Counted from the first letter of the stretch, positions 2,966 to 41,660 are shown. The stretch is 64,000 nt of DNA from Candidatus Levybacteria bacterium RIFCSPLOWO2_12_FULL_41_12 (GCA_001784155.1 MFPL01000007.1:10101-74100); one strand, 5' to 3'. Program-made: numbers and translations. Notes: a model not told the origin generated them from the sequence alone.

Positions 2966-3993
2966 AAAGCCTAGTGTCAGTCCTTATTGTAAACTGGAAT
3001 TCCAAAGAAAATCTAAAGGATTGTTTACAGTCTCTATTTAAAATAGATTACCCAAATTATGAAGTAATTATAGTAGATAACGGCTCAACTGACGACTCTG
3101 TTAGCTGGGTAAAGAAAAATTATCCAGGAGTAATAATTGCAAAGGCAAATAGGAATTTGGGGTTTGCGGGAGGAAATGAGTTTGGTCTTAAGCACTGCCG
3201 GGGAAAATACATTTTATTTCTCAATAACGACACGTTAGTAACTAAAAGTTTTCTAACAGAGCTCGTAAGCTTTATTGAAAAAGACGAAAAACTCGCTGTC
3301 GTACAGCCTGCGATTCTTTTTCATCGTCCAGGAGAGTCACTTCATGGAAAGATAAATTCGGTAGGGAGTTTTATTTTAAATAGTGGATTTCTCTACCACC
3401 TTAACTATGGAAAAGAATTTATTGAAAAAGATTATGGAGAGTCATATGAGATTTATACTGCCTACGGAGCGTGTTTCCTGGCAAATAGAAAACTTGTTAA
3501 TAAGCTTGGACTTTTTGATCCAGAGTACTTTGCTTACTTTGAGGAGACTGATTTCAGTCACAGGGTCTGGCTTTCAGGCCATAAAGTGAAGATTTATACA
3601 AAAGCTGTAATCTACCATAAGGGTGCAAAGACAGCCCAAAAATTACCTAGCTCTTTTATACAGTACCACTCTTTCAAAAATAGACTCTTTACCTACCTAA
3701 AGAATTTCGGTCTGGTAAATATTTATAAAATATTTGTACCGCATCTATTTATTTGCGAGGTATCTTCAGTTCTGTATTTGGCTATGAGGCGACCTGGGTA
3801 TACGTTAGCAATTCAGAAGGCTATTCTCTGGAATATTATTAAGGTGGGGAAACTTCTTCGGGAAAGACGCAAAGTTCAGGAGGAAATCAGAAAAGTAAGA
3901 GATGCGGATTTCATTCCCAAATTGACTAGGAAAGTTAATATTAGGTACTATTATTACTTATCTAGCGGAGAGCTTGAAAAATACAGAGAATGA
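2962..3993 (+). CDS. GT2 (GT-A) glycosyltransferase
   Basis: VSVLIVNWNSKENL...VIIVDNGSTDDS...FLNNDT motif set. C-terminal hydrophobic helix. ATGA overlap with upstream gene. Confidence 0.8.
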   Translation: MKSLVSVLIVNWNSKENLKDCLQSLFKIDYPNYEVIIVDNGSTDDSVSWVKKNYPGVIIAKANRNLGFAGGNEFGLKHCRGKYILFLNNDTLVTKSFLTELVSFIEKDEKLAVVQPAILFHRPGESLHGKINSVGSFILNSGFLYHLNYGKEFIEKDYGESYEIYTAYGACFLANRKLVNKLGLFDPEYFAYFEETDFSHRVWLSGHKVKIYTKAVIYHKGAKTAQKLPSSFIQYHSFKNRLFTYLKNFGLVNIYKIFVPHLFICEVSSVLYLAMRRPGYTLAIQKAILWNIIKVGKLLRERRKVQEEIRKVRDADFIPKLTRKVNIRYYYYLSSGELEKYRE

Positions 3994-6476
3994 ACCTAAT
4001 TAAGAAACCCCTTGTCCTAATCTTCTTGGTTGGACTTTTAGCATGGCTTCCCACGTTATTTTTTTGGTTCTTTAAGGGCTATGAGGCGACGTGGTTATTA
4101 GGAGTTGGCGAGTATAATATCCCTAATTTATTAAAGGGCCATGCCTTCCTCTATTATATTGACTGGAAAATATTTGGATGGAATCCTTGGGGATGGTATC
4201 TCACTAGCATCGTTCTCCATCTTATAGCATCTTTCCTTTTGTTTAAATTTGTGTATTTAGTATCTAAGAATAAACTCCTTTCTCTTATAGCATCTATATT
4301 TTTTGTCGCTAATACCTCGTACAACGATGTCTTAACCTGGGGAAGTTTTAATTCATATTATCCACTCCTTTTAATATTGATGCTGGGATCTTTAATAGCA
4401 TTTGCTAAATATAGGGAAACTAAGAGGAAGATCTTTTTAACTATTTCAACAGTTTTTGCTTTCCTTGGATTCTACACTAGAGAAACGGGGTTAGTCATTG
4501 TGCCAATGCTTACAATATTTGATCTCATATTTTCTAATAATCTTAAAAGCAGACAAACAATAATTGATATTGTCAAAAGACAAACCCCTTTTTACATTGC
4601 TTTCTTAACCTTTTTCGTCATAAGGTCTATTTACGGTGGAACTCCGGGTGATAGCGCAGACAGTAATGTAAAATTACAAATGAGATTCGTTGAGGACGGA
4701 CTTTATTTAGAGTACGCGAAAGCTGTTATTCTAACAATGGGAAAGCTCATCCCTCCCCAAATCATACCTTATCCAGCGTTAAATTTAATTAGAGAGAGTT
4801 TTTCAAAGCTTGGACCCGAAAATACATACTTCTTCCCTGCTCTCGGATGGATAATTTTTGGCGGACTAGGGGCAGTAATGATAAAGTTGAGAAAGTCTAA
4901 CTACGCGAGAATTTTTCTATTTTTTCTATTATGGCTTGGATTATTTTCTGTATTCGTATCATTTGCAGTTCCTAATACTCCTGAAGTGTTAGCTAGAGCA
5001 TATGAGTACAATACGATGCGTTATCGATACTTTGCGTTTCTGGGAACCTCTATTCTCCTCGCGGTGATCTTAGCAGAGATATTCAAGAAGAGAGAAAGAG
5101 CGTTAGTTTTTGTAGCGTCAATTGTAGTAATTTTAAATCTGGTAATGTTATGGAGGATAGAGCAGAAAGTTTACGCGCTTTCCTATAAACCGGCAAAAGA
5201 ATTTAATATGAGATTGAGATCATTTTTTCCCACACTTCCCAAAGAAGCCGTTTTCTACTTATATCCACATTCCTCCGGTTTAGGCGACTATCTCCTGGAA
5301 TGGTACCTGATAAAGGGAGATTCCTATTTAAATCTGATTGGAGAACCATACAGGATAGAATCGCAGATAATTGCAGTGATTGATAAGGTAAAAAAAGGCA
5401 AAATAGAACTGTCTAACGTATTCTTTCTCGATTACAATAGCAGTGGTCTTTTAAATGAAACGGATAAGGTAAGAAGAGAACTTTTAAATCAGAAGAGCTA
5501 TCCGGTAAAACTTAATCGCGCAAGCGAAGCGCTTTATAAAAGCAATTCATTTGAAGGGCCAGTTGTCGACATTCCTTATAATATTGACCTTAGCCTGGGT
5601 ATTTCAGAAAACAGTCAATTTGTTGGAAAATCTTCCGATAGTCTAAAATTTAGAGCTTTGGTAGATTATTCCTCTGATAGGATTAATTACTTGAAAACTG
5701 TTTCCGTTTCTACCGCCTATACTATGTCACAGCGGGAGGGAGAACCGTTTTATCATGTTTTACCAGGGAATTTGATCGATGGCAATACGGGAAATAGATA
5801 CTCTTGGATTGCAGATGCATGGAACCCCTGGATACAGGTAGATCTGGGAGAACAGAGGGAGATTATTGCCGCTACGTGGGGATCAATAGATGGATCTACC
5901 AGAGTGCCAGCAACCTATTCGATATCTGTCTCAAAAGACGGAAGGGAATGGGTAAAAGCAAAAGATGTTAAAAATGCCAATTATGCTAAAAGCATTGATG
6001 TTTTTGATAAGCCGTATATAGCAAGGTTTGTTAGAATGGATATAAACACAACTTCCGGAGGAGACTTCGTAATGCTGGATGAGTTTGAAGTGATTTCCTA
6101 CTCAAGTAAAAATATTCTCTTATACTACAAAGATAGAGATAAACTATTGACTGACTACTACAACATGTTTGACTTTATGGGAGGTCAGGATGATTTATCT
6201 TATTTAAGAGACAAGGGACTAGATACTTATTGGGGCAAGTTGTCCTGGGAGACAAATAAGACAGCGCTGGGGGAAAATGGTCAAGTTTTATATTTTCAGT
6301 ATAATATTAATAATTCATTCCAACAAATAACCTTAGATCTCAATGAAGGAGAAATCTATTCCGGAAGCGGTAATTTTCTTAAAAAATATGTGAAATCAGT
6401 AGTAATAGATTTTGGACGAACCCCTTTTAATTTCTCATTGGATTCTTTACAATTTATACCTAGATTTAAGTTATGA
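3990..6476 (+). CDS. Polytopic GT-C-like membrane glycosyltransferase fused to a C-terminal F5/8 type C (discoidin/CBM32-like) domain
   Basis: About 400 aa of repeated hydrophobic helices (PMT/ArnT/AftD-like). Then an extracytoplasmic ~430 aa region containing NLIDGNTGNRYSWIADAWNPWIQVDLGEQREI..TWGSIDGSTRVPATYSISVSKDGREW, a discoidin signature. Confidence 0.6.
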   Translation: MNLIKKPLVLIFLVGLLAWLPTLFFWFFKGYEATWLLGVGEYNIPNLLKGHAFLYYIDWKIFGWNPWGWYLTSIVLHLIASFLLFKFVYLVSKNKLLSLIASIFFVANTSYNDVLTWGSFNSYYPLLLILMLGSLIAFAKYRETKRKIFLTISTVFAFLGFYTRETGLVIVPMLTIFDLIFSNNLKSRQTIIDIVKRQTPFYIAFLTFFVIRSIYGGTPGDSADSNVKLQMRFVEDGLYLEYAKAVILTMGKLIPPQIIPYPALNLIRESFSKLGPENTYFFPALGWIIFGGLGAVMIKLRKSNYARIFLFFLLWLGLFSVFVSFAVPNTPEVLARAYEYNTMRYRYFAFLGTSILLAVILAEIFKKRERALVFVASIVVILNLVMLWRIEQKVYALSYKPAKEFNMRLRSFFPTLPKEAVFYLYPHSSGLGDYLLEWYLIKGDSYLNLIGEPYRIESQIIAVIDKVKKGKIELSNVFFLDYNSSGLLNETDKVRRELLNQKSYPVKLNRASEALYKSNSFEGPVVDIPYNIDLSLGISENSQFVGKSSDSLKFRALVDYSSDRINYLKTVSVSTAYTMSQREGEPFYHVLPGNLIDGNTGNRYSWIADAWNPWIQVDLGEQREIIAATWGSIDGSTRVPATYSISVSKDGREWVKAKDVKNANYAKSIDVFDKPYIARFVRMDINTTSGGDFVMLDEFEVISYSSKNILLYYKDRDKLLTDYYNMFDFMGGQDDLSYLRDKGLDTYWGKLSWETNKTALGENGQVLYFQYNINNSFQQITLDLNEGEIYSGSGNFLKKYVKSVVIDFGRTPFNFSLDSLQFIPRFKL

Positions 6477-7447
6477 AATCAAAATTCTGGAAAAGTAAAA
6501 AAGTTCTAGTTACAGGTGGGGCAGGTTTTATAGGAAGTCACGTTGTTGAAAAGTTAGTTGCAAGAGAGGCAGTGGTTTCGGTTTTGGATAATTTGCAAAA
6601 CGGCTCGTTTGAGAATCTGGAAAATGTAAAAAGTAATTACAGTTTCATAGAGGGAGACTGTACCGATTCTGAGGTCGCAGGGAAAGCGTGTAGGGGACAG
6701 GATATTGTAATGAACTTGGCAGCTAAAGTTGGAGGAATTGAATACAACAGGACTCACCAGGCGACAATGTTAAGGGATAATTTACTCATCGGAACAGTAG
6801 TTTTGGAAGCTGCTCGTAAGAATAACGTTGAGAGGTTTCTCGTCATATCCTCTGCATGTGTATATCCAAGGGAATGTTCTTTTCCCACTCCTGAATCGGA
6901 AGGTTTTCTAGACGAACCTGAGCCCACCAATGGAGGTTACGGATGGGCCAAGAGAATGTCTGAGAAGTTGGGGATGTATTACGCTGAGGAATTTGGGATG
7001 AAGGTGGGAATTGTGAGGCCATACAACTGCTATGGTCCTAGAGATCATCTTGATCCTGAAATGTCTCATGTTATCCCGGCTTTGATAAAAAGAGTTTTTG
7101 ATGGGGAGGATCCTATAAAGGTATGGGGTTCAGGAAAACAAACAAGAGCATTTCTGTATGTAAATGATTTAGCAGAGGGAATGATCCAGGCAATAGAAAA
7201 ATATCCCGTGCCCGATCCAGTAAATCTCGGCACTGATGAGGAGATTTCAATAAAGGAGCTTATAAAAAAGATATTGGATATATCCGGAATTAATGCTAAA
7301 ATTGAGTTTGACTTATCAAAGCCGGACGGCAGTCCCAGAAGAAACAGTGACAATAGTAAGGCAGAAGAAAAGCTGGGATTTCAAGCTAAAACCAATATAG
7401 ACCAGGGTTTAAAAGAGACGATAGAGTGGTATAGAAATTATCAATAA
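6473..7447 (+). CDS. fcl: GDP-L-fucose synthase (GDP-4-keto-6-deoxy-D-mannose 3,5-epimerase/4-reductase)
   Basis: Block-by-block match to Fcl/WcaG as I recall it: AAKVGGI..N, SSACVYP, EPTNGGYGWAK, YNCYGPRDH..PE.SHVIPALIKR, VWGSGKQTRAFLYVNDLA, NLGTD.EISIKEL, FDLSKPDGSPRR. Confidence 0.75.
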   Translation: MKSKFWKSKKVLVTGGAGFIGSHVVEKLVAREAVVSVLDNLQNGSFENLENVKSNYSFIEGDCTDSEVAGKACRGQDIVMNLAAKVGGIEYNRTHQATMLRDNLLIGTVVLEAARKNNVERFLVISSACVYPRECSFPTPESEGFLDEPEPTNGGYGWAKRMSEKLGMYYAEEFGMKVGIVRPYNCYGPRDHLDPEMSHVIPALIKRVFDGEDPIKVWGSGKQTRAFLYVNDLAEGMIQAIEKYPVPDPVNLGTDEEISIKELIKKILDISGINAKIEFDLSKPDGSPRRNSDNSKAEEKLGFQAKTNIDQGLKETIEWYRNYQ

Positions 7448-8107
7448 ATGAATATCTTTATTCCGAAGAAAGAAAATCTAATTCCATTGGAGTTTGAGTA
7501 TATCGATAGCACGATTGATCAATATTACAGGCCGCTACAGGGGTATTTCATGAGGAAAAGACTGGGTCTTGTCGCCTCAATGTTTGGGAAGAAGAAAGTA
7601 GATAAGGTTTTAGACGTAGGATACGGAGGGGGCACCTTTATTCCTATGCTTAGTAAAGCTGCAAAGAAAGTATATGGCATAGATACGATGCCTTATCCTC
7701 AAAAGGTTAAGAAGATTTTAAAGAAAGAAGGGTTATCAGCTGATCTTACAGTTGGATCAATATTTAAACCACCATATAAAAAAGAATTTTTCGATTTGAT
7801 TGTTTGCGTAAGTGTTCTTGAGCACTTTGAGGGAAAGCAAATTAACAATGCTGTTAAGCAAATGTACAATCTTTTAAAGCCCGGGGGGATTATTGTTTTA
7901 GGATTTCCCGTGAAGAACCCCATGACGGATTATATCATTGATCACTTCCTAAGCTTTAACCCCGATGATATTCATCCCTCAGGACACAAGCAGATCCTTA
8001 AGGGAATAAGAGAGGAAGTTAGAGTAGACAAAATGATTCATTATTTTCCCTTCCTGCCTCTAGACCTCTCCCTATACTGTGTCGTAAGGGTAAAAAAATC
8101 AAAATAA
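7448..8107 (+). CDS. Class I SAM-dependent methyltransferase
   Basis: Motif I VLDVGYGGGTF. Post-I acidic residue. LLKPGGIIVL motif. Confidence 0.7.
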   Translation: MNIFIPKKENLIPLEFEYIDSTIDQYYRPLQGYFMRKRLGLVASMFGKKKVDKVLDVGYGGGTFIPMLSKAAKKVYGIDTMPYPQKVKKILKKEGLSADLTVGSIFKPPYKKEFFDLIVCVSVLEHFEGKQINNAVKQMYNLLKPGGIIVLGFPVKNPMTDYIIDHFLSFNPDDIHPSGHKQILKGIREEVRVDKMIHYFPFLPLDLSLYCVVRVKKSK

Positions 8108-8113
8108 TGTTCA

Positions 8114-8794
8114 ATGGATAAAACCAAGGTATCAATTATTATTGCCTGTAAGAATGAAGGCGAAGGAATAAAAAAAGTCCTCGAATCGGTAAGAAAATAT
8201 TCAAGCGATATAATTGTAGTAGATGGACATTCAGGGGATGGTACAGAAGAGATGGTTAGGGGGTTTGGTGCAAGATTCTTTTTAGACAATAAAAAAGGAC
8301 GTGGGGACGCATTGAAGATCGGTATAAAAAAAGCAAAGAAGGATGTAGTACTGTTTTTTGACGCTGATGGGTCGCACGATGAAAAAGATATACCAAATTT
8401 TGTTAGGCCAATTTTGGAAAAGAGGGCGGATCTTGTAATTGGTTCAAGGAGAACCGGAGGAAGCGCGGATATAATTGTAAATCTTACAGGAATTGTCCGA
8501 TCTGCAGGATGTGATTTTCTTGTAGCGATGGTGAATCATAAGTTTAAAACAAATTTAACAGACATTCTTTATAGCTTTAGGGCTATTAGAGCGTCTACAG
8601 TTAAGAAAATAGCTTTGCATTCAGATGATTTTGGAATTGAACAGGAGATGGTGGTTTCCTGTTTGAAACTCGGATATGTGGTTAAGGAAATTCCGAGCAG
8701 AGAAAAGGCGCGTGGATGGGGCAAGTCAAAACTTAGAACAATTACGGGGATTAAATTTATTTTTTCTCTAGTTAATCAGCTATATTTTTCCTGA
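8114..8794 (+). CDS. GT2 DPM1-like (polyprenyl-phosphate sugar synthase-like) glycosyltransferase, soluble catalytic domain
   Basis: VSIIIACKNEGEGI...IIVVDGHSGDGT...FFDADGSHD (DxD). No TM segments. Confidence 0.7.
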   Translation: MDKTKVSIIIACKNEGEGIKKVLESVRKYSSDIIVVDGHSGDGTEEMVRGFGARFFLDNKKGRGDALKIGIKKAKKDVVLFFDADGSHDEKDIPNFVRPILEKRADLVIGSRRTGGSADIIVNLTGIVRSAGCDFLVAMVNHKFKTNLTDILYSFRAIRASTVKKIALHSDDFGIEQEMVVSCLKLGYVVKEIPSREKARGWGKSKLRTITGIKFIFSLVNQLYFS

Positions 8795-11172: not shown

Positions 11173-11700
11173 TTATCGTCTTAGGTTTACATACCAAGGC
11201 TTATTATTCTTTACCATCTCTCTTACGATGCTTGGAATTTCCTTAACGTCATCTGGCCATCTTGCTTCAATATTACCAAGAATTTTTAAAACTTGCTTGT
11301 CTTCTAAAGGCCAATGGGATATCCCATCATGCGAATAGTCTTTGTCTCTTCCGGAACCGACTAATCTCACGGGAATCTTTTCATAATTTATATAATTACG
11401 TATCGTTTCAAAAGGTCTGTATAGAAGAAACGTTGTAATCGAATAGGTGAATGGAATTTTCCCTTCAAGAGCCAGTCCTATTGCTATTCCCATCATAGCT
11501 TGTTCCGATGCGCCTACGTTAAGGTACCTATCCGGGAAGTCATCACGAATCCTATCCCACATACCGTAGCCAAGATCTCCCGTCACGACCCAAATGTTCT
11601 TATTTTTTAACATTTGAGAATGCAGGGAAGCTGCGAATGCTGCTCTTTGATTATCTTTAATAGTCATGTAATAATTCCATCGCGAGAGTGAAATCCTCAT
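11173..11700 (-). CDS. Transketolase C-terminal-section subunit, truncated (Pyr domain only, 175 aa)
   Basis: GASEQAMMGIAIGLALEGKIPFTYSITTFLLYRPFE (pyrimidine-binding domain). Ends about 130 aa short of the plus-strand paralog at 25143..26093. The next gene on the same strand starts immediately, leaving no room for the missing C-terminal domain. Confidence 0.65.
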   Translation of the reverse strand: MRISLSRWNYYMTIKDNQRAAFAASLHSQMLKNKNIWVVTGDLGYGMWDRIRDDFPDRYLNVGASEQAMMGIAIGLALEGKIPFTYSITTFLLYRPFETIRNYINYEKIPVRLVGSGRDKDYSHDGISHWPLEDKQVLKILGNIEARWPDDVKEIPSIVREMVKNNKPWYVNLRR

Positions 11701-12385
11701 TGCTCATTATGTAATAATGCGCCCCCTGATCTTTCAAGAAGGGGAATTGATTTACTTTCGTTTCAGCAAAAATTATATTTTCTTTTTTGCTTTTCAAAGC
11801 CTTAACTATTTGCTGAGTGTCATGCCCGTTAATTCTTTTTATATCGGGAGCAAATCCTTTTAGCCTTTTATATAAGGAGTCTTTGGGGATCGGAGCGTAT
11901 GCTCCCCAGCCGTTAACGTTAATCAAAATCTTCAAATTATTAATTTTCTGATCTCGAATAATTCTTAGTGATTCCCATATACTTCCTTCGGTTGATTCTC
12001 CGTCAGAGATCATGCAATATACATTTTTACCTCTATTTGAAAGCGCAATGCCCAAAGCTATTGGAAGCCCTTGTCCTAGACTTCCCGTTGATACATCAAC
12101 TCCAACTGCTGGATTCCGATCAGGATGCACATGCAGCTTTTCGGATTCGCCTGCTTTTAATAAGCCGTATTTTTCTAAAATAGTGTACAGCGCTATTCCG
12201 GCATGACCATTTGATAAAATAAATTTTTCGTTTTTTGATTTGATACTATAAACTGCATCTATCAGATCAACACTACTCAAACATGATCCCAAGTGAGATA
12301 AATTCAGTTTGTGAGAGATTATAAGAATTCTTCTTCTGATATCTCTTTGTCCTTTAGAAAGTTTTTTTAAGTCGTATTTATTCAT
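11657..12385 (-). CDS. Transketolase N-terminal-section subunit (TPP-binding)
   Basis: GHAGIALYTILEKYG, STGSLGQGLPIALGIA, ISDGESTEGSIWE motifs. Confidence 0.75.
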   Translation of the reverse strand: MNKYDLKKLSKGQRDIRRRILIISHKLNLSHLGSCLSSVDLIDAVYSIKSKNEKFILSNGHAGIALYTILEKYGLLKAGESEKLHVHPDRNPAVGVDVSTGSLGQGLPIALGIALSNRGKNVYCMISDGESTEGSIWESLRIIRDQKINNLKILINVNGWGAYAPIPKDSLYKRLKGFAPDIKRINGHDTQQIVKALKSKKENIIFAETKVNQFPFLKDQGAHYYIMSNEDFTLAMELLHDY

Positions 12386-13381: not shown

Positions 13382-15979
13382 ATGAAGAAAATTAATTTTT
13401 TATTCTTGCTCGTTATACTCGCAGTCGTTGTTTTATTTTCCTTGGGAAAAACCCTGGACTACTATTTCTTCACTGACGATTACGCATTTTTGTATTATCT
13501 CGGAAACAATCTTGAATTTGGATGGCCATACAACTCAGTCCTATCTATATTCAGCCCTATATATAAGCTTTTCGGAACCAATGCTCAGCCTTATTTTACC
13601 TTAGCTGTAGTAACTTATTTTTTTGCTTCAGTAAGCGTTTTCTTTTTTGCCAAAGCTTTAACAAAGAACTTACTGGTTTCCTCAGTAGCCTCGGTTATTT
13701 TTGCAACCGGCTATATTGGGCTAGATCAATTTAGCATGATCGCTGTTTCGATAATTAACAACTTGAATGTTATTAATGTCAGTATTACTTTGATACTTTT
13801 AATTTATTGGATCGAAACAAGGAAGCTCAGATACTATTTCTTAACTTTTTTTATGTTTTGGTTTAGTCTGCTTCTTTTTCCACACAGAGCATATCCTTTG
13901 GTTTTATTTCTGCCTTCTCTGGAATTAGTACTTAGTTTTAAACCGCGAAAACTCAAAAATATGCTCAAGCAAGTAGTAAGCTTATTTTTAAGATACATAC
14001 CCTTTCTCATTGTTGCAGTCCAGCGTGGAGTTTTTTCTTACGGTACACATGGCACCGAAAATGTTCATCTTTTGAATCTGGTTGAAACAGACAGCAAGAT
14101 CTACACGCTTTTTAATCCGTTATTTTTTAAAGAACTTTTTGCAGTGTTGGGTAAGTTCGTGTTATTGCCTTCATTTACGGATTTCTTTAAATACGTACCA
14201 AGTCAGGATTTTTACTCGTTTGTGGGAGTTGCCACATCTCTGCTGGCAACTGCCATGTCGATAGTTATTTACAGACGTGAAAAGCAAAAAAACGGCAGAG
14301 TGATTTTTGCTGTTTTTCTTTTGACAATACAAAGTTACGCTGGAAACATGTTTCTAAACGTAGATTTTGATGCTAACGGCCCGGTAAATAGATACTTAAC
14401 AATATCGTTTCTTTTTTATTCTATTTTGATTTCACTGTTTTTTTATTTGTTTCTTCAGATATTGTCTAAGATAAATGTTAATGCAAAAAAGAGAATTTAT
14501 GCGACCCTGGCATTTTTTCTTATTTTAGTTCTTGCATCACTCTCCAGAGATTATGAGGAACGGGTCCTTGAAGACCGAAGTCAGCCTGCGATAAAATTTT
14601 TTAAAGAATTAAAGACTTATGTCCCCGCGCTTTCAGACTCAAATTACAACATATTTTATTTTGATAGAGCGTCTTATTATCCCGTATCTTCTAGATTTGG
14701 AAATGTACTTCTCAGCGCAGCTATGGGCAACAGCGTCAACCTGGCGTTTCCTTACGGGATATCGGTTGATTCGGTTAAGATAACGGACACTTTCGAAGAT
14801 TTTCTACGTCTGGTTTTTTATACACCAGAGGGTAAAAAACCTGTTTACTATACGTTTTATAACGATGAGAGTGGTCTTAAAGACACAACAGACGATGTAT
14901 TCAGTCTTTTAGAAAGTGGTGGTTCTACCGTGATTTCAAGCGATAAGATAACATACAAAAACGAACAGGGAATTAATGCGGTAAGCATAAATACAGCGGG
15001 AGTATCAAGCCTTACCCCGCTTTCATTAAGGATGAGTCTTCAAGCAACCCCTCTTCCGCCGTCAGCGTTTGCGTTTCCTTACTCTTTTAACGCAAGCCTA
15101 ACGGAGTCTATTTCGGAGAGTGAAAAAGAGAAAATTTTTAAATATCTTCTTTCTCGAGAGAAATATTATGAAAGCGTGAGGGTTCAGGTTGAATCCATAC
15201 ACGTTGGTAAGAAGAACCCTGCGTCGTATTTAGTTGATGATAATCCTGACACCAACTGGATTTCCGATCAAAGCAGATGGGAAGTGGGTATAAAGCCTTG
15301 GATTAAAATAGATCTCTCAGAGGAGAGAAGCATAGGGACGGCTCTTTGGAGACAGTCTCCTTCCCGTGCTGTAGAAGATTTTACAATTAATGTTTCAAGT
15401 GACGGCGAGAACTGGACTGGTGTGAAGAATTTGAGCAAGCGAAACATTTACTCCGACAATAGTCTGGTGGCGGTCGATTTCAATCCCGTTAATGCCCGTT
15501 ACGTAATGCTTACGATTGTAAGTCTATCGACGGGCCCAGGTCCGAGTTTGGCGGAAATAGAACTATTAGAAGATGAATTTAATAGGATGGATATAGAAAA
15601 GGCATTCGGAATGAAAGATAACCCTTTTGCGAGTATCTCTGATGTTGAGGAAGTTGCGCAGGCGTATGCGTATTTAGAAAAAAACGCAAAGTTAAAGATA
15701 AAAACATTTACAAACAAAGACGATCCCGTGTCCAGTGCTGTGCTAGGTGAAATTCCTATCTTTCTGGATGGAGCCTATCATGATTACGAATTTCAGATAC
15801 CTCAAGGCGGGACTCATCTCAAAGAAATAAGACTTGAAGCCAATTTTCCCGCAAGTTTTAATGTTAGTCGGGTGCTCATAGAAAATCTGTCCAAGGAAAA
15901 AGTTCTTGAGGAAACCCGAAAAAAGTGTCTCGAGTTTACAGGGATAGATTCCTGGAGAAATCCTTTCGATTGTAGCTAG
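13382..15979 (+). CDS. Polytopic GT-C-like membrane glycosyltransferase with a C-terminal F5/8 type C (discoidin) domain. Paralog of 3990..6476
   Basis: Start moved to the internal ATG (MKKINFLFLL) so it does not overlap the divergent gene. TDDYAFLYY loop motif followed by many TM helices. C-terminal LVDDNPDTNWISDQSRWEVGIKPWIKIDLSEERSIGTALWRQS...FTINVSSDGENW discoidin signature. Confidence 0.6.
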   Translation: MKKINFLFLLVILAVVVLFSLGKTLDYYFFTDDYAFLYYLGNNLEFGWPYNSVLSIFSPIYKLFGTNAQPYFTLAVVTYFFASVSVFFFAKALTKNLLVSSVASVIFATGYIGLDQFSMIAVSIINNLNVINVSITLILLIYWIETRKLRYYFLTFFMFWFSLLLFPHRAYPLVLFLPSLELVLSFKPRKLKNMLKQVVSLFLRYIPFLIVAVQRGVFSYGTHGTENVHLLNLVETDSKIYTLFNPLFFKELFAVLGKFVLLPSFTDFFKYVPSQDFYSFVGVATSLLATAMSIVIYRREKQKNGRVIFAVFLLTIQSYAGNMFLNVDFDANGPVNRYLTISFLFYSILISLFFYLFLQILSKINVNAKKRIYATLAFFLILVLASLSRDYEERVLEDRSQPAIKFFKELKTYVPALSDSNYNIFYFDRASYYPVSSRFGNVLLSAAMGNSVNLAFPYGISVDSVKITDTFEDFLRLVFYTPEGKKPVYYTFYNDESGLKDTTDDVFSLLESGGSTVISSDKITYKNEQGINAVSINTAGVSSLTPLSLRMSLQATPLPPSAFAFPYSFNASLTESISESEKEKIFKYLLSREKYYESVRVQVESIHVGKKNPASYLVDDNPDTNWISDQSRWEVGIKPWIKIDLSEERSIGTALWRQSPSRAVEDFTINVSSDGENWTGVKNLSKRNIYSDNSLVAVDFNPVNARYVMLTIVSLSTGPGPSLAEIELLEDEFNRMDIEKAFGMKDNPFASISDVEEVAQAYAYLEKNAKLKIKTFTNKDDPVSSAVLGEIPIFLDGAYHDYEFQIPQGGTHLKEIRLEANFPASFNVSRVLIENLSKEKVLEETRKKCLEFTGIDSWRNPFDCS

Positions 15980-19274: not shown

Positions 19275-20292
19275 TCTTCCATCTATTTCTATTGTTACAT
19301 GTACATATAATGTGAATCTTAAGTTGTTTGAAAAAGTATTAAAAGCTTTAAGAGAACAAGTTTACCCCAAACGTTTGATCGAACATATTGTTATGGATGC
19401 TGGTTCATCTAATGGAACAGTGGAGCTTGCGAAAAAATTTGGGTGCAAAGTATATGTTCATCCGGAGCTTTTGGAAGAAGAACAAGTTCGTGCATCCTTA
19501 GGTTTCAAAAAAGCAAAAGGTAAAATTCTTTTAATAATCCAATCCGATAATTTAGTGCCTTCGAATGATTGGCTCAGAAGAATGGTTCAGCCGTTCGTAG
19601 AGAACAAAAAAGTTTTTTGCACATATACCGCTCGCTATAGCTACACAAAAGATATGTCCGCTATAACTCGCTATGGAGCGCTCATTGGAGCAAACGACCC
19701 TCTAATATCCCCCTATTTTTTGGATAAGATTGAAAAGATTGCAATGACCACTAGTAATTACAATAAAGGAACCATAATTTCCGAAAACAAGAACCATTAT
19801 ATTGTTAAATTTAATAAGGATAATTTTCCTCCGCTCGGTGATAATGGCCAGATGGTTTTAAGAAGCGTAATGGAAAAAGTAAATAAAGATCCAAAAGAAT
19901 ATCTTCACTTGGACACTTTTTCCAGAATGTTTGATTTAGGTTATGATACCTGTGGTGTAGTCAAAGCTTCGATAATTCATGTTATTACTTCAGACATTAA
20001 GCGCTTTGTGACAAGAAGAATTCAGTTAAAGGAAAAGTTTTTTGATGATAGACGCAATAATCGCAGATTTCTTATATTTGATATAAATTCAAAAAAAGAT
20101 AGAATTAATTTGATCAAATACGTCATTTTTTCTTTGACTTTTGTTCCCACCTTATTTCAAGGCGCCAGGGGATATTTGAAAATAAGAGATAGCGCATGGT
20201 TTCTCCATCCTGTAATCTGCTTTATAATGCTTATTGCATATGGATATTCAGAATTTAAGTGGATTTTGAAGAAATCTTTGAGACTAGCTTAG
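19267..20292 (+). CDS. GT2-like (GT-A) glycosyltransferase with C-terminal membrane helices
   Basis: SISIVTCTYNVNLKLFEKVLKAL...VMDAGSSNGT. Hydrophobic C-terminus (VIFSLTFVPTLF). Confidence 0.55.
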   Translation: MNNLPSISIVTCTYNVNLKLFEKVLKALREQVYPKRLIEHIVMDAGSSNGTVELAKKFGCKVYVHPELLEEEQVRASLGFKKAKGKILLIIQSDNLVPSNDWLRRMVQPFVENKKVFCTYTARYSYTKDMSAITRYGALIGANDPLISPYFLDKIEKIAMTTSNYNKGTIISENKNHYIVKFNKDNFPPLGDNGQMVLRSVMEKVNKDPKEYLHLDTFSRMFDLGYDTCGVVKASIIHVITSDIKRFVTRRIQLKEKFFDDRRNNRRFLIFDINSKKDRINLIKYVIFSLTFVPTLFQGARGYLKIRDSAWFLHPVICFIMLIAYGYSEFKWILKKSLRLA

Positions 20293-20810
20293 TAGTCTTT
20301 GTAAATTTTCCTGAGTTCCCCGAGATTAACGGTTGAAAAATAAACTACTGTTTCAAAAGTCTTCTTGTCTTTTTTTTCGACCTTTTTGGCTATATCGTTT
20401 AAAACCTCTTGGTGCTTAAAAGAAGCTTTTTCTACTCGGTTGAAAAGCTCTTTAGTTGGTTTTCTTCTCTCGTCTTTGAATAGAAATACTAAAAGGGTTA
20501 TCTCATTCTCACCTTTTAAAGCCGTTTCCTTGGCAAGTTCCACATTCCCTTTATCTGCCAATATCTTAGCCATTAGTATTCTTTTATCTGCCAGAAGAAG
20601 ATGTTGCTCAGCTTTTTTAATGGGGTCTTGTATTATGAATAACATCACTTTATCTCTTAAAACCTTAAGCTTGTAAAGTTTGTGATCGGGAAGCATTCCC
20701 GGATAAGGAAGATCGTATTTTACCGATGCTGATGTGGTAGAGTTGTCGCGTGCAAATCCAACTCCCGAAAAAACAAAAATCAAAATGAGGGCGATTGCAA
20801 TTTTCTTCAT
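20289..20810 (-). CDS. Secreted/exported hypothetical protein (signal peptide)
   Basis: MKKIAIALILIFVFSGVGFA signal peptide, then a Lys/Glu-rich helical body. Start placed at the internal Met (track ORF starts at 20843). Confidence 0.45.
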   Translation of the reverse strand: MKKIAIALILIFVFSGVGFARDNSTTSASVKYDLPYPGMLPDHKLYKLKVLRDKVMLFIIQDPIKKAEQHLLLADKRILMAKILADKGNVELAKETALKGENEITLLVFLFKDERRKPTKELFNRVEKASFKHQEVLNDIAKKVEKKDKKTFETVVYFSTVNLGELRKIYKDY

Positions 20811-20852
20811 ACAGCAATTATAGCATAGGTTTGTAAAACGCATCCACCTATA

Positions 20853-23266: not shown

Positions 23267-24295
23267 ATGAAAAAATATGTAGGCATTTTCCCTTACAATG
23301 ATCACAGGTACTTATTGAATGCAGCGTTTAATAAAAATCTAAACGGTCTTGAGACTCCTATCTTCGTGACACTAAAAAAGTCTTTAAAACAGGTAAATAT
23401 AGAAGTAAATACATATGACATAGTGACAAAAGAAGAACTTTATACGTATGTATATTTTGATTTACCAAATCTTTGGAATATCAAAGCATGGGTAAAGATA
23501 ATCTCAAACAAAAACAAAAATATCCTGATCTGCAATGAGCCTCCTATTGTAATACCATTTAATTATTGGAAAATATTTCATACATTCTTTACAAAAGTTT
23601 ATACATGGAATGATAGCTTGGTAGACAACAAAAAATATTTTAAAATACTTTTGCCCAAAACAAGCTTAGGTCTTAACATCAAACCAAAAAAATTTAAAGA
23701 GAGGAAGTTTTTAGTTCTTATAAATAAAAACATACTGCCTTTTTACCCATTCAAAATTATCTTAAAGTTCGGAAAAGAGCTGTATACGGAGAGAATAAGA
23801 GCTATCGAATTTTTTGAGAAGACCATTCCAAAAAAGTTTTATCTTTACGGGCGAGATTGGAACAAACCCAAAAAGCATAATTTAACTGAGAGAATTATTG
23901 GTCCAAAGAAGTACTTGACCTACAAAGGTGAGGTCGACGATAAGATAGAATTATTATCAAGCTTTAAATACTCTATTTGCTTCGAGAACTTAACTGATAC
24001 CACAGGGTTTATTACCGAGAAAATATTTGATTGTCTAAAAGCTAGATGCGTCCCCGTCTATTGGGGTGCTACGGATATAGAAAATTATATTCCGAGGGAG
24101 TGCTTTATTGATTTTAGGCAATTCAAGGACTATGATGAGCTTCTAAAATTTTTAAATTCAATTAGCGAACAGAAGTATGCCAAGTATATAAAAAGCATTG
24201 AGAAATTGTTGTCTGATAAAAAATTTATAAACTTATGGTTTGAAGAAGCTTTTGCAGACTTTTTCATAAAGGATATTTTGGAAATAAAAAAATGA
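23267..24295 (+). CDS. GT10-family alpha-1,3/4-fucosyltransferase-like glycosyltransferase
   Basis: YKFSICFENLTDTGFITEKIFDCLKARCVPVYWG closely resembles the GT10 acceptor/GDP-Fuc motif block of Helicobacter FucT (YKFNLCFENS..GYVTEKI.D......P.YWG). Confidence 0.7.
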   Translation: MKKYVGIFPYNDHRYLLNAAFNKNLNGLETPIFVTLKKSLKQVNIEVNTYDIVTKEELYTYVYFDLPNLWNIKAWVKIISNKNKNILICNEPPIVIPFNYWKIFHTFFTKVYTWNDSLVDNKKYFKILLPKTSLGLNIKPKKFKERKFLVLINKNILPFYPFKIILKFGKELYTERIRAIEFFEKTIPKKFYLYGRDWNKPKKHNLTERIIGPKKYLTYKGEVDDKIELLSSFKYSICFENLTDTTGFITEKIFDCLKARCVPVYWGATDIENYIPRECFIDFRQFKDYDELLKFLNSISEQKYAKYIKSIEKLLSDKKFINLWFEEAFADFFIKDILEIKK

Positions 24296-25146
24296 TAAAA
24301 AATAATCTACCTTTAAGCCTGGAGTTAAAGGCAGCGGAAACAAGAGAAGAAATTTTAGAAATGATAGTAAGTGCCCGTGGAACCCACATTGCGAGTGCGT
24401 TTTCAATAGTAGATTTGGTGGTTTATTTATACAATCATGTTTTAAGAATAAATCCCAAAAAACCGAATGATCCTAAAAGAGATAAGTTTGTCTTAAGTAA
24501 AGGACATGGATGCGCAGCTTTGTATGTTGTTTTGGCAAATCTTGGCTTTTTTCCAAAGAGTGAGCTTGGGAAATACTGCACGAGAGAGGGTATTTTGGGT
24601 GGACACCCCGATAGCACAAGAATACCGGGGGTAGAAACCTCGACAGGTTCTTTGGGTCATGGTTTTCCTGTGGCCGTAGGATTTGCGTTGGCCAGTAAGA
24701 TTAACAAAAGTAATTCTAAGGTTTATTGTATAGTCGGTGATGGTGAATGCAATGAAGGGTCGGTTTGGGAAGCGGCACAGGTAGCTCCGCACCATAAGTT
24801 AGATAATCTAACTGTAATAGTTGATGACAACAAACTTATGATCTCAGGTTTCGCTAAGGATATTCTAAACCCTTTATCTTTAGCGGATAAATTCAGGATA
24901 TTTGGTTGGAATGTTATTGAAATCAATGGTCACAATTTTAAGGAAATAATAACTGCATTTAATGCCAAAACGAAAAATTCTAAGCCTACTGCCATAATCG
25001 CAAATACAATTAAAGGCAAAGGAGTGTCTTTTATGGAAAATGAAAAAGAATGGTACAGTAGACTTCCCAACGAAGAAGAGCTTAAGCTCGCGTTGGATGA
25101 GTTAGATACAAAAATCAAAAAGCTTAAGGGGAGGCTTAAGATATGA
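24292..25146 (+). CDS. Transketolase N-terminal-section subunit (TPP-binding)
   Basis: SKGHGCAALYVVLANLGFF, GHPD....GVETSTGSLGHGFPVAVGFA, VGDGECNEGSVWEA. Confidence 0.8.
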   Translation: MIKNNLPLSLELKAAETREEILEMIVSARGTHIASAFSIVDLVVYLYNHVLRINPKKPNDPKRDKFVLSKGHGCAALYVVLANLGFFPKSELGKYCTREGILGGHPDSTRIPGVETSTGSLGHGFPVAVGFALASKINKSNSKVYCIVGDGECNEGSVWEAAQVAPHHKLDNLTVIVDDNKLMISGFAKDILNPLSLADKFRIFGWNVIEINGHNFKEIITAFNAKTKNSKPTAIIANTIKGKGVSFMENEKEWYSRLPNEEELKLALDELDTKIKKLKGRLKI

Positions 25147-26093
25147 GAGATTCTTTCATAAGCTCGATATACAAAGTAACAAAAAAGGATAAAAATGTTT
25201 TATGTATTGTAGGAGATATTGGAGCATTTCTTCTAAGGAATTATATTAAAGATTTTCCAAACAATTATTTTAATTTGGGAGTCGCAGAGGCAAATATGGT
25301 CGGGGTTGCATCGGGACTTGCGATGTCTGGGAAAATTCCATTCGTTTACACCATTACCCCTTTTATTACGGCAAGGCCATACGAGCAAATTAAAGTAGAT
25401 GTATGCTATAACAACGCGAATGTAAAGCTTGTGGGTGTGGGGAGCGGTGCATCTTATGGGACGATGGGGTCAACCCACCATTCATTAGACGATTTAGCTC
25501 TAATGAGTACACTGCCCAATATGACGGTCATTTCTCCATCGGATCCTCTGGAGGTAGAAGAAGCAGTATTTGCCGCGGCAAAACACGTGGGACCCGTGTA
25601 TATAAGACTTACCTTAAAGTCTAAACCCTTAATTTATAAAAGGGAAGATTTTAAGATAGGAAAGGCAAGAGTAGTTAGAAACGGAAAAGATGTGGCAGTC
25701 ATTGCTACGGGGGATATGGTCGAAGTTGCCGTGGATGCTGCAAGCATCCTGGAAAAGGAAAATATAAGCTGTCAGATAATCAATATGCATACGATAAAGC
25801 CCATAGATGAACGACTTATTGGGGATTTGTCGAAAAAATATAAGGTAATAATTTCCATAGAAGAACATAGTGTTATGGGAGGGTTGGGCAGTGCAATATC
25901 TTCCGTTTTGGCACAAATTCCTGATAATAAAGCACTTTTTAAAGCAATGGGGTTTCGGGACGAGTTCGTGAAAATTTACGCTAGCGATAAACATGAGATA
26001 TTTAACGCTTATGGTTTATCGGAAAAACATTTAGCTAATGAAGTTCTCTCTTTGTACATGTATGCTAAGTCCAATAATACGAGAAGACATTAA
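25143..26093 (+). CDS. Transketolase C-terminal-section subunit (full length: Pyr and C-terminal domains)
   Basis: GVAEANMVGVASGLAMSGKIPFVYTITPFITARPYEQI. 316 aa with the C-terminal domain present. ATGA overlap with the N-subunit gene. Confidence 0.8.
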   Translation: MRDSFISSIYKVTKKDKNVLCIVGDIGAFLLRNYIKDFPNNYFNLGVAEANMVGVASGLAMSGKIPFVYTITPFITARPYEQIKVDVCYNNANVKLVGVGSGASYGTMGSTHHSLDDLALMSTLPNMTVISPSDPLEVEEAVFAAAKHVGPVYIRLTLKSKPLIYKREDFKIGKARVVRNGKDVAVIATGDMVEVAVDAASILEKENISCQIINMHTIKPIDERLIGDLSKKYKVIISIEEHSVMGGLGSAISSVLAQIPDNKALFKAMGFRDEFVKIYASDKHEIFNAYGLSEKHLANEVLSLYMYAKSNNTRRH

Positions 26094-32481: not shown

Positions 32482-32530
32482 CTTTGATGTTGAAATTTTT
32501 TCATAAAGTATATATAGTTTCGAGTATAAA

Positions 32531-38271: not shown

Positions 38272-38599
38272 GATAAAAGAATACTTTTATAAAAGACAAA
38301 ATAGAATTTTGGTAATTCTATCATTAAGCGTGCTATTTTTAGTAGTTAAGGAAATACCATTCTTAAATATTTTTTTTCCCGATAACGCTGCTTTTGGAGT
38401 TGCGCTCATTTCCATTTTAATTTTATTTAAACTTTATAAAAATACAATCTTCATCATTTTTTTAGCATTTTTCAGCTTTATTCTATATATAACAGAAGTA
38501 GTTAACCATGCAGATCAGCTAGCAGTTCTAATATTAGTATGTTTAACGGTGTATATGCTAGAAGAGGCTACAGTTTTTTTAAGAAATGAAATTTCCTAG
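38249..38599 (+). CDS. Small hydrophobic membrane protein (3-4 TM)
   Basis: 116 aa, mostly hydrophobic helices. Overlaps its neighbours by about 20 nt on each side. Could be a real small subunit or a spurious ORF. Confidence 0.35.
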   Translation: MQFININRIKEYFYKRQNRILVILSLSVLFLVVKEIPFLNIFFPDNAAFGVALISILILFKLYKNTIFIIFLAFFSFILYITEVVNHADQLAVLILVCLTVYMLEEATVFLRNEIS

Positions 38600-41438: not shown

Positions 41439-41660
41439 ATGAAGCCTCAAGACATATTATTTTTACTGGTTTTGCTACCCTTATTATATAAAAGAGATCC
41501 AATGTGGTTTGCTCTGGCGGGAATTTTTTGTCTGGTACTCTCAGCCCCCTTATTCTCTCAGTGGATTTTCTTCACCGCCCAGCGCCTCGTCATCTACGCT
41601 TTTTTGTTCTTCTTGCTGTCCCTTCTATTACATATCAAAAACCTGCATAATAAACAGTAG
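41439..41660 (+). CDS. Small 2-TM membrane protein (possibly GtrA-like companion of the upstream GtrB-like GT2)
   Basis: 73 aa, two hydrophobic helices. Sits right after the polyprenyl-P GT, as gtrA does in gtrAB(C) cassettes, but is shorter than GtrA. Confidence 0.3.
   Translation: MKPQDILFLLVLLPLLYKRDPMWFALAGIFCLVLSAPLFSQWIFFTAQRLVIYAFLFFLLSLLLHIKNLHNKQ

Follow-up and report, generated by a model that had tools for sequence, protein, structure and literature searches.

The stretch of DNA analysed here (the window, 64,000 nucleotides) belongs to Candidatus Levybacteria, an uncultured bacterium of groundwater, and most of it, to about 59 kb, is covered by a glycan locus. The locus has genes for nucleotide-sugar enzymes, for more than 15 GT2/GT4/GT10 enzymes and for an initiating phosphoglycosyltransferase, along with genes for large proteins of unknown function that are secreted or membrane-bound, some of which carry DUF5667. 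One gene of this locus encodes a membrane glycosyltransferase, named GT-C1 here, whose C-terminal region is extracytoplasmic and contains a discoidin domain (Table 1). Its ORF has an ATG start that overlaps the stop codon of the GT2 gene upstream, to which it is translationally coupled, and its stop codon in turn overlaps the following gene's start. A second gene of the same architecture, GT-C2, follows downstream.

Table 1. Features of the GT-C1 region; nucleotide positions are those of the window and residue numbers those of GT-C1.
Feature	Residues or length	Position	Strand	Basis
GT2 glycosyltransferase	343 aa	2962..3993	+	Pfam PF00535, E 1.9e-29
GT-C1, membrane glycosyltransferase with extracytoplasmic discoidin-containing C-terminal region	828 aa	3990..6476	+	ORF list, Pfam, AlphaFold2
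GT-C membrane domain of GT-C1, 11 TM helices	1-412	3990..5225	+	AlphaFold2, Foldseek, hhalign
TM helices 1-6 of GT-C1	about 5-24, 66-92, 95-117, 123-144, 147-163, 165-181
TM helices 7-11 of GT-C1	about 188-215, 277-302, 306-326, 346-364, 369-392+
Extracytoplasmic alpha/beta linker domain of GT-C1	420-575	5247..5714	+	Secondary structure from AlphaFold2
F5/8 type C (discoidin, CBM32-like) domain of GT-C1	591-699	5760..6086	+	Pfam, Foldseek
C-terminal domain of GT-C1, helices followed by five beta strands	705-828	6102..6473	+	AlphaFold2
SDR resembling GDP-fucose synthase	324 aa	6473..7447	+	NCBIfam NF047922, E 3.6e-64, below cut-off
Class I SAM-dependent methyltransferase	219 aa	7448..8107	+	Pfam, synteny
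Small soluble GT2 resembling polyprenyl-phosphate hexose synthases	226 aa	8114..8794	+	NCBIfam, PDB match
GT2 of GtrB/ArnC/PgfS type, C-terminal TM helices	340 aa	9464..10486	-	NCBIfam, TM segments
GT-C2, architecture as GT-C1	865 aa	13382..15979	+	Pfam, hhalign

The first-pass annotation had described the N-terminal half of GT-C1 as a polytopic GT-C module, and the structural models bear this out. The AlphaFold2 model of the full-length protein (mean pLDDT 90, pTM 0.83) and that of residues 1-418 (pLDDT 86.8) both contain 11 long helices between residue 5 and about residue 392, and in Foldseek the 20 best PDB matches for the membrane half are GT-C enzymes only. The classes retrieved with the N-terminal model are STT3, Pmt4, PglB, ArnT, Pmt1/2, DPY19 and EmbB; STT3 (8age, E 2.8e-4, TMq 0.46) is the best match, and CtPmt4 (9i5k, TMq 0.51), PglB (3rce, TMq 0.52), ArnT (5f15) and Pmt1/2 (6p25) are among the others, with TM-scores that are moderate throughout (TMq 0.35-0.52), large rmsd values and E-values too close to tell the GT-C classes apart. 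Searched against the PDB by sequence, GT-C1 matched no solved GT-C, and the Pfam PMT_2 model stayed below its threshold (E 0.013, 16.2 bits against 26.1). The topology follows from three observations taken together: the 11 helices, a charge bias between the two sets of loops (17 K+R in 48 "inside" residues against 13 in 138 "outside" ones), and a relative, P0269, in which a DPMS/GtrB-like GT2, necessarily cytoplasmic, directly precedes a GT-C-discoidin protein of the GT-C2 type as an N-terminal fusion. The N-terminus of GT-C1 is therefore inside and its C-terminus outside, and the C-terminal region is extracytoplasmic as had been supposed.

A phmmer search with residues 1-420 against 1.84 billion representatives returned 1556 relatives; of 40 sampled in the distant tail, 28 have TPR repeats and 20 have PMT_2. 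The GT-C1 family aligns by hhalign with a bacterial PMT_2+TPR (TMTC-like) set over 388 columns (probability 100%, E 3e-40). As far as sequence comparison can tell, these PMT_2+TPR proteins are the closest relatives of GT-C1, which is a TMTC/PMT_2-type GT-C with a discoidin-containing module standing where the TPR array would be. The homologous membrane domain is shared with the bacterial PMT_2+TPR proteins and eukaryotic TMTC1-4 (GT-C, PMT clan), and so are the 11 TM helices, the long outward loop between TM7 and TM8, and a C-terminal substrate-recognition module on the non-cytoplasmic side. The TPR array itself is replaced in GT-C1 by alpha/beta, discoidin and beta-rich domains; neither the window proteins nor 21 of 23 distant representatives have a TPR match. 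GT-C1 further differs from TMTCs in that the "SHKSYRP"/YRP motif is not evident, and Pfam PMT_2 misses most members of the GT-C-discoidin family.

The conserved residues of GT-C1 are E32 in loop 1, D113, R164-E165, D221/D224 in the long TM7-TM8 loop, and R344. E32, D113, R164-E165 and R344 are invariant or at least 90% conserved in the family alignment. The hhalign comparison with the PMT_2+TPR set pairs E32 with the first D in the "FVxDD" motif of loop 1, D113 with the E in "HPxHxE", R164-E165 with "KE", and R344 with the R in "DRYxY". R164-E165 and R344-x-x-Y347, which are invariant or nearly so, match the K/R-E motif in EL3 and the RxxY motif in EL5 of TMTCs, and a loop-1 acid is likewise common to both. 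The counterparts of "DD", "KE" and "RxxY" in 11-TM TMTCs are M1, M4 and M7, to which catalysis, metal binding and phosphate binding have been assigned (PMC7801869). Please note that the placement of E32 depends on the pair of profiles: when the GT-C1 family is aligned with the GT-C2 family, E32 is left in a gap. A conserved DD/DE motif in loop 1, suggested earlier as a point to check, is found in GT-C2 as an invariant D32-D33; in GT-C1 the DD of TMTCs is reduced to E32-A33, with a single conserved acid, at an equal distance from the N-terminus. Together with the TM7-TM8 loop, residues E32, D113, R164-E165 and R344 are assumed, by homology, to cluster as one site.

The C-terminal region holds a genuine discoidin domain. 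The peptide NLIDGNTGNRYSWIADAWNPWIQVDLGEQREI, quoted in the first-pass annotation as its signature, is present at residues 594-625, and PF00754 (F5_F8_type_C) matches with an E-value of 1.9e-15 (score 57.5 bits, cut-off 28.2), with PF22633 as a second Pfam match (E 3.8e-11). The match was expected somewhere in residues 430-828 and is confined to the 109 residues given in Table 1 rather than spanning that region. In Foldseek the discoidin domain superimposes on the CBM32 modules 4a42, 4zxe and 4a41 (target TM-score 0.77-0.81, rmsd 1.9-3.0 Å), and its PDB sequence matches include neuropilin b1, lactadherin C2 and the CpGH89 CBM32. Discoidin domains are able to bind lipids or proteins as well, and CBM32 members differ in their binding-site residues. 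The linker domain in front of it is conserved across the family, matches nothing in Pfam or, by sequence, in the PDB, and has no detectable similarity to the discoidin domain or to the C-terminal domain. The latter is also conserved in the family and aligns by hhalign with the same region of the GT-C2 family, without an assigned family of its own.

The fusion is not a matter of chance, since PF00754 recurs in homologs of both paralogs and in distant representatives: it is present in 67 full-length GT-C1 homologs, in 35 of the 37 GT-C2 homologs beyond GT-C2's own cluster, and in 21 of 23 distant 50%-identity representatives. This GT-C-discoidin family appears to be confined to Patescibacteria, which makes the earlier remark that such an architecture is rarely annotated outside Actinobacteria beside the point. 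The database records seen for the family carry the names "discoidin domain-containing", "hypothetical" or "TPR" protein. The name "TPR repeat protein" in some records is wrong.

GT-C2 was described in the first-pass annotation as a paralog of the same layout, and it is a true full-length one. The two families align end to end (hhalign probability 100%, E 7e-100, 806 columns), with about 21% identity between the two window proteins, and GT-C2 carries PF00754 (E 1.3e-15), its discoidin domain covering residues 609-721 (nt 15206..15544). If translation began at 13316 instead, the ORF would be longer, 887 aa. The GT-C1 gene is often linked to the gene for its GT-C2 paralog, for example in loci L017 and L018.

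The gene neighbourhood points to the donor. The methyltransferase is located 3' of GT-C1 in all 11 loci with downstream DNA (53-76% identity), and its PDB matches are methyltransferases of the UbiG and NodS class. The small GT2 is present in all nine loci with enough downstream DNA and in L017 and L018, both of which keep the order GT-C1, methyltransferase, small GT2. Its NCBIfam matches, every one under the curated cut-off, are AglJ (E 3.7e-36), dolichyl-phosphate hexose transferase (E 3.2e-17) and PpgS (E 2.6e-16), and its best PDB match is the Pyrococcus furiosus Dol-P-Man synthase 5mlz (E 1.6e-10). From this conserved adjacency to a Dol-P-hexose-synthase-like GT2, and from the GT2 fusion seen in one relative, we infer that GT-C1 uses a polyprenyl-phosphate-linked donor, and we propose the small GT2 as candidate donor synthase. 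A second candidate for a polyprenyl-phosphate sugar synthase is the GtrB/ArnC/PgfS-type GT2 between GT-C1 and GT-C2, a position kept in L017; it matches PgfS (E 6.4e-71) and ArnC (E 1.9e-45) over the full length, both below the cut-offs. Other neighbours are less constant: the GT2 upstream of GT-C1 is directly upstream in 6 of 15 comparison loci, and the SDR, here between GT-C1 and the methyltransferase, has an ortholog (70-75% identity) upstream in other loci. No GtrA-family flippase was matched by Pfam among the scanned ORFs. Two small multi-TM ORFs without family were also seen, of 116 aa at 38249..38599 and of 73 aa at 41439..41660.

Combining these data, we consider it fairly probable (roughly 70%) that GT-C1 is an inverting-type, lipid-donor-dependent GT-C(A) glycosyltransferase of a PMT_2/TMTC-like lineage that works as follows. 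On the cytoplasmic face, the small GT2 would put a hexose on polyprenyl phosphate, and the always-adjacent methyltransferase may modify this hexose or the product. The lipid-linked sugar would be flipped across the membrane, and the GT-C1 active site, presumably formed by the outward loops with E32, D113, R164-E165, the TM7-TM8 loop and R344, would pass it to an extracytoplasmic acceptor. The C-terminal module, discoidin domain included, is attached rigidly and would most likely serve to select or hold an acceptor that bears carbohydrate. Candidates are products of the glycan locus around it, either a polysaccharide of the cell surface or a surface protein that is glycosylated beforehand. GT-C2 may perform the same reaction with another donor or acceptor.

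This arrangement resembles the three-component systems GtrA/GtrB/GtrX, CsbB/GtcA/YfhO, GacI/GacL and PpgS/Rv3779, where a polyprenyl-phosphate-sugar-synthase-like GT2 is likewise coupled to a GT-C, and the expected logic is also alike, with sugars attached outside the membrane to a surface glycan that is already complete (PMC11127046, PMC5836110). It differs from them in that a methyltransferase is the fixed third member of the cassette and one cassette comes with two divergent GT-C paralogs; a GtrA flippase was not detected among the scanned ORFs. GT-C1 carries a large lectin-type ectodomain. The GT-C fold combined with a lectin-like domain on the non-cytoplasmic side is also found in PMT1, PMT2 and PMT4 (GT39), although their luminal MIR domain is a beta-trefoil inserted in a loop, in contrast to the C-terminal discoidin beta-sandwich of GT-C1. 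PMTs work as homo- or heterodimers; a dimer of GT-C1 with GT-C2 would be speculation.

Kinship to TMTC-type PMT_2+TPR proteins could also be read more literally, with GT-C1 as a protein O-glycosyltransferase like PMT, TMTC or PgfM that transfers a polyprenyl-phosphate hexose to Ser/Thr residues in proteins at the surface or secreted from the cell, such as pili, S-layer or DUF5667 proteins, with the discoidin domain docking a glycosylated or folded protein rather than a polysaccharide. Eukaryotic TMTCs are protein O-mannosyltransferases (PMC7801869), GtrB/PgfS-type GT2s supply GT-C protein O-glycosyltransferases in streptococci (PMC11092751), and both a PgfS-like GT2 and large secreted or membrane proteins, some with DUF5667, are at hand in this locus. 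We nevertheless hold this reading to be unlikely: the protein-binding TPR array of the relatives has given way to a carbohydrate-binding-type domain, the gene sits amid nucleotide-sugar and polymer-assembly genes, the initiating phosphoglycosyltransferase among them, and an acceptor protein was not found.

The first-pass annotation had likened GT-C1 to AftD and suggested processive, substrate-tethered elongation, i.e., a polymerase that extends a glycan at the membrane's outer face, with the lengthening product tethered by the lectin domain. The layout is indeed comparable, as AftD and the EmbA/B/C enzymes also join a GT-C core to extracytoplasmic carbohydrate-binding module(s); the discoidin domain is weakly similar to the third CBM of AftD (PF24607), and Pfam CBM_AftD matches weakly in GT-C2 (E 0.092) and in relatives (P0273, E 1e-4). 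AftD 6w98 is also among the Foldseek matches of the full-length model (E 4.7e-7), but with a TM-score of 0.25 and in a list mostly of CBM32 modules, so that the likeness is an analogy of layout and not kinship. With the membrane domain alone, AftD is absent from the Foldseek top 50 and AftA ranks 33rd (E 0.5), and neither a Pfam arabinosyltransferase membrane-domain model nor any AftD-family Pfam model matches there. The 11 helices and one discoidin domain of GT-C1 contrast with 16 helices and three CBMs in AftD, which also binds an acyl carrier protein; among the scanned ORFs we noticed no acyl-carrier-protein gene and no arabinose donor pathway, with UbiA-/DprE-type decaprenyl-phospho-arabinose genes not seen, and the phylum and cell envelope differ. 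The conserved neighbour, a monosaccharide-phospho-polyprenol-synthase-like GT2, suggests single-sugar transfers. We give an AftD-like polymerase very little credence, and the processive elongation proposed earlier went unsupported.

Equally improbable is an oligosaccharyltransferase or ligase like PglB or STT3, moving a preassembled oligosaccharide en bloc from polyprenyl diphosphate to protein or cell wall: STT3 and PglB are the best Foldseek matches and the initiating phosphoglycosyltransferase of the locus makes polyprenyl-PP-linked glycans, but the sequence kinship is to PMT_2/TMTC/ArnT-type enzymes with monophosphate donors, the GT2 strictly conserved next to it resembles Dol-P-hexose synthases, and GT-C1 has no STT3 Pfam match and no WWDYG-type periplasmic domain was seen in it.

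We therefore return to GT-C1 as a lipid-donor-dependent enzyme of the TMTC/PMT_2 type. It is an uncharacterised yet recognisable variant of a known enzyme class, whose reaction is most likely the extracytoplasmic movement of a sugar from a polyprenyl-phosphate donor, and in Candidatus Levybacteria it probably adds sugars from a lipid carrier to a cell-surface glycan or glycoprotein.

By homology at the level of sequence profiles, GT-C1, the 828-residue membrane protein followed up here, belongs to the GT-C fold class and to the PMT_2/TMTC-like lineage. The PMT_2 match to its membrane half falls below threshold (Pfam, E 0.013), an NCBIfam search of both paralogs, GT-C1 and GT-C2, gave no family, a membrane-domain profile of 19 sequences found nothing among PDB sequences at E <= 10, and the full-length family profile found only discoidin domains among the best 60 of its 88 PDB matches. 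Three independent lines, i.e., Foldseek, phmmer, and hhalign, establish the membrane half as a GT-C domain. Residues 1-418 were modelled separately (pLDDT 86.8), and the top 20 PDB matches of this model in Foldseek are GT-C enzymes only (query TM-score 0.35-0.52); the GT-C matches include yeast and human STT3, Chaetomium Pmt4, PglB, ArnT, Pmt1-Pmt2, DPY19, and EmbB, and matches to unrelated transporters do not exceed probability 0.25. Used as query in an exhaustive phmmer search of 1.84 billion representatives, residues 1-420 recovered the GT-C1 family itself (full-length members 780-903 aa), followed by a tail of ~1500 proteins of 500-650 aa aligning to GT-C1 residues about 55-215; among 40 sampled from this tail, 28 have TPR repeats and 20 a PMT_2 match. 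The membrane domain of the GT-C1 family aligns with this tail set at an hhalign probability of 100% (E 3e-40, 388 columns).

When hhalign aligns the family with the PMT_2+TPR set, E32 of GT-C1 pairs with the first Asp in the 'FVxDD' motif of loop 1, D113 with the Glu in 'HPxHxE', R164-E165 with 'KE', and R344..Y347 with the R..Y in 'DRYxY'. The 'DD', 'KE', and 'RxxY' motifs match those described for the 11-TM TMTC O-mannosyltransferases, which have DD in EL1, a KET that binds phosphate and metal in EL3, and ERxxY in EL5, and in which the TM7-TM8 loop is functionally critical (Eisenhaber et al., PMC7801869). The GT-C1 family has 11 helices and a conserved 60-residue TM7-TM8 loop (YGGTxGDxADSNVK...), and its motif residues are invariant or >= 90% conserved. 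Please note that the putative equivalence of E32 to the catalytic Asp is drawn from one profile alignment and from position. The possibility that GT-C1 is a pseudo-enzyme, the DD motif being gone, is judged unlikely because strict or near-strict conservation persists at E32, D113, R164, E165, and R344.

The discoidin domain proposed in the first-pass annotation is confirmed: PF00754 matches residues 591-699 well over threshold (Pfam, E 1.9e-15), PF22633 matches as well (E 3.8e-11), and the peptide quoted in support of the proposal lies at residues 594-625. Matches in PDB sequence searches include neuropilin b1, lactadherin C2, and CBM32 modules from bacteria. In the full-length AlphaFold2 model (44-sequence alignment, mean pLDDT 90, pTM 0.83), the discoidin region resembles solved CBM32 modules (Foldseek, target TM-score 0.77-0.81, rmsd 1.9-3.0 A), with fucose- and galactose-binding lectin modules among the structural matches, and the pTM suggests a fixed arrangement of the whole modelled chain. 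The domain makes up about 110 of the ~410 extracytoplasmic residues; the flanking parts have no family match in Pfam or PDB sequence searches. We dropped the idea of several CBM32 copies because hhalign of the middle, discoidin, and C-terminal segments found no mutual similarity, i.e., no internal repeats. GT-C1 overlaps its neighbours at both ends, its start with the stop of the GT2 gene upstream and its stop with the start of the gene that follows, so it is an operon member. The identical sequence is present in many groundwater metagenome contigs; GenBank assigns it to Candidatus Levybacteria (Microgenomates, Patescibacteria) and names it 'hypothetical protein' or, in error, 'tetratricopeptide repeat protein'.

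Coordinates of GT-C1, its ectodomain parts, and associated genes (window positions unless residues are stated)
Feature	Position	Strand	Description
GT-C1	3990..6476	+	ATG start, 828 aa
Alpha/beta domain of GT-C1 ectodomain	residues about 420-575		before discoidin domain
Helix-plus-beta domain of GT-C1 ectodomain	residues about 705-828		after discoidin domain
GDP-fucose-synthase-like SDR	6473..7447	+
Methyltransferase	7448..8107	+	219 aa, SAM-dependent
Small GT2	8114..8794	+	226 aa
GT-C2	13382..15979	+	865 aa
GT-C without discoidin	33221..34900	+	559 aa, no Pfam match, TMTC-like profile E 1.9e-35
Double-module membrane protein	45214..48402	+	1062 aa, > 20 hydrophobic segments, no Pfam match
GT-C without discoidin	48435..49874	+	479 aa, PMT_2 (Pfam E 7e-11)

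Helix number, charge bias, and a GT2 fusion in a relative all place the C-terminal region of GT-C1 outside the membrane, as first proposed, and not in the cytoplasm. Since there are 11 helices, the two termini are on opposite sides. Lys and Arg account for 17 of 48 residues in the 'inside' loops and 13 of 138 in the 'outside' loops, and this bias is also seen across 43 homologs. In P0269, a relative's protein (1071 aa; locus L016, 8001..11216), a paralog-2-type GT-C-discoidin protein has a DPMS/GtrB-like GT2 fused straight onto its N-terminus; GT2 domains depend on cytoplasmic nucleotide sugars, so the fusion fixes the N-terminus on the cytoplasmic side. To our knowledge, loop 1 is outside in every solved GT-C enzyme, and in the TMTC model. 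The contig carrying P0269 has a separate paralog-2 gene as well, and therefore some genomes have three GT-C-discoidin genes.

GT-C2, whose start we took from most gene calls (a longer ORF begins at 13316), does share the layout of GT-C1, as had been read from the sequence: PF00754 matches it at E 1.3e-15, and the GT-C2 family (37 homologous clusters) aligns end to end with the GT-C1 family (hhalign E 7e-100, 806 columns). Because the alignment spans the whole length, the four-part architecture is ancestral. In loop 1, D32-D33 is invariant in paralog 2 and E32-A33 stands equally far from the N-terminus in paralog 1; conversely, R164-E165 of paralog 1 is R169-A170 in paralog 2. The paralogs thus differ where contacts to metal and donor are expected.

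Gene context was compared in 15 loci, of which a genome collection supplied 13 and metagenome contigs two. An ortholog of the methyltransferase follows GT-C1 in all 11 loci with downstream DNA, and an ortholog of the small GT2 comes next in all nine with enough DNA; across the loci, these two proteins are 53-77% identical and GT-C1 34-62%. Other genomes link the two paralogs as well: L017 keeps the window's order from the upstream GT2 through the nucleotidyltransferase after GT-C2, and in L018 GT-C1, methyltransferase, small GT2, and GT-C2 follow one another compactly. Seven contigs (L003, L005, L008, L012, L014, L004, and L011) are titled 'uncultured Gammaproteobacteria' or 'Woesearchaeota archaeon'; as their GT-C-discoidin genes are 34-62% identical and gene order is identical to that of Patescibacteria contigs, we hold the titles unreliable and the contigs to be, probably, Patescibacteria MAGs under a wrong label.

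The small GT2 lacks TM helices. Its NCBIfam matches are AglJ (E 3.7e-36), archaeal dolichyl-phosphate hexose transferase (E 3.2e-17), and mycobacterial PpgS (E 2.6e-16), all three under the curated cut-offs and so indicating the class, not the exact activity; its best solved relative is the Pyrococcus Dol-P-mannose synthase 5mlz (E 1.6e-10). A second GT2, GtrB/ArnC/PgfS-like with C-terminal TM helices, sits between the paralogs (NCBIfam PgfS, E 6.4e-71). No GtrA-family flippase was matched among the window ORFs scanned. In the mechanism we propose, the small GT2 would load a hexose onto polyprenyl phosphate at the cytoplasmic face, the lipid-linked sugar would be flipped across the membrane, the predicted GT-C active site would hand it to an acceptor outside, and the rigid ectodomain, which occupies the place of the TPRs in relatives, would pick a carbohydrate-bearing acceptor; the methyltransferase is a candidate for O-methylation of the sugar before or after transfer. 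A polyprenyl-phosphate sugar synthase paired with a GT-C enzyme is the hallmark of 'three-component' extracytoplasmic glycosylation (PMC11127046, PMC5836110), and equally of the streptococcal Pgf/GtrB route of protein O-glycosylation (PMC11092751). Protein O-glycosylation is the main rival. En-bloc transfer as by OST is a further rival, with STT3 and PglB among the structural matches of the membrane domain. Least supported is the AftD-like processive polymerisation favored by the first-pass annotation, whose AftD kinship we reject since the full-length Foldseek match is weak and AftD is missing from the top 50 for the membrane domain alone.

Beyond transfer of a lipid-linked sugar by GT-C1, one may picture the co-inherited paralogs (~21% identical) as a heterodimeric extracytoplasmic machine, akin to the Pmt1-Pmt2 and EmbA-EmbB pairs, fed by the small GT2 and the methyltransferase and adding, in these ultrasmall Patescibacteria, a possibly methylated sugar to surface glycan or glycoproteins, with the CBM32 modules reading the acceptor glycan. 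We consider this improbable, at perhaps one chance in seven; if true, it would amount to an envelope-decoration system specific to the lineage, which might bear on attachment to a host. As to sugar identity, the GDP-fucose-synthase-like SDR, a frequent neighbour of GT-C1, and the fucose/galactose-lectin structural matches give only a hint. A GT10 gene (fucosyltransferase-type; 23267..24295, +; PF00852 E 8.2e-15) is present, as in L001, and together with the SDR hints at fucose-type sugars in the product.

The window (G+C about 36-40%) is devoted almost entirely to glycan biosynthesis from its start to about 59 kb, mainly on the + strand. The double-module protein, which may be a double membrane enzyme, has another polytopic module as its N-terminal half, and its C-terminal half (residues about 568-970) gives a match to the PMT_2+TPR GT-C profile (E 9.4e-57). 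With this protein and two further GT-Cs besides the paralogs, the window has at least five GT-C enzymes. Split transketolase-like subunit pairs (11173..12385, -; 24292..26093, +) each adjoin an SDR epimerase/dehydratase, which suggests that a two-carbon-branched or chain-extended sugar is made here; the first pair (242 + 175 aa, lacking Transketolase_C, vs 278 + 307 aa in syntenic L017) may be degenerate. At 41663..43745 (+), a 174-aa fragment confined to the N-terminal GT4 domain precedes a four-helix-bundle protein of 124 aa (TIGR02436, E 1.8e-36; weakly Avd-like) and then a complete GT4 gene, which may reflect a gene remnant or an insertion within the glycosyltransferase array. DUF5667 occurs in an 1124-aa protein with about 10-12 N-terminal TM segments (34897..38271, +) and in a 184-aa protein (20289..20843, -) of a small type recurring in L001, L016, and L017. 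Products of 30035..33220 (+), i.e., a type I phosphodiesterase/nucleotide pyrophosphatase family protein (523 aa), a HAD-like hydrolase, and a PAPS-reductase-domain protein (229 aa), may serve phospho- or sulfo-modification of the glycan. The locus ends (56529..59227, +) with a small initiating phosphoglycosyltransferase (Bac_transf, E 1.3e-60) and a 658-aa DUF4012 membrane protein, followed by the housekeeping genes for RecO, a class II tRNA synthetase, IMPDH, and MsrA. Wzx, Wzy, and ABC exporter families were not recognised in the window.

GT-C cores with lectin-like domains are known, i.e., PMT-MIR and Emb or AftD with CBMs. GT-C1 differs from the PMT_2/TMTC lineage in its lack of TPRs, and it differs from AftD too. 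Literature searches on GT-C with discoidin, discoidin in Patescibacteria, and CPR O-mannosyltransferase returned nothing relevant; in that literature, a C-terminal discoidin module on a TMTC-type core is not described, nor is the linked paralog pair with a DPMS-like GT2 and a methyltransferase, seemingly restricted to Patescibacteria. The family is a natural case of swapping the acceptor-recognition module on a GT-C core, a protein-binding TPR array being exchanged for a lectin-type module. Annotation is corrected as well, the catalytic half having been missed by Pfam (sub-threshold) and the NCBIfam naming models, and some records reading TPR protein. General understanding of GT-C enzymes is unchanged. 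Patescibacteria (candidate phyla radiation) are uncultured, ultrasmall, and mostly dependent on other cells, with a surface chemistry that is hardly described; GT-C1 and GT-C2 are a concrete candidate for envelope decoration outside the membrane, of value mainly for candidate phyla radiation cell-surface biology and for annotation.
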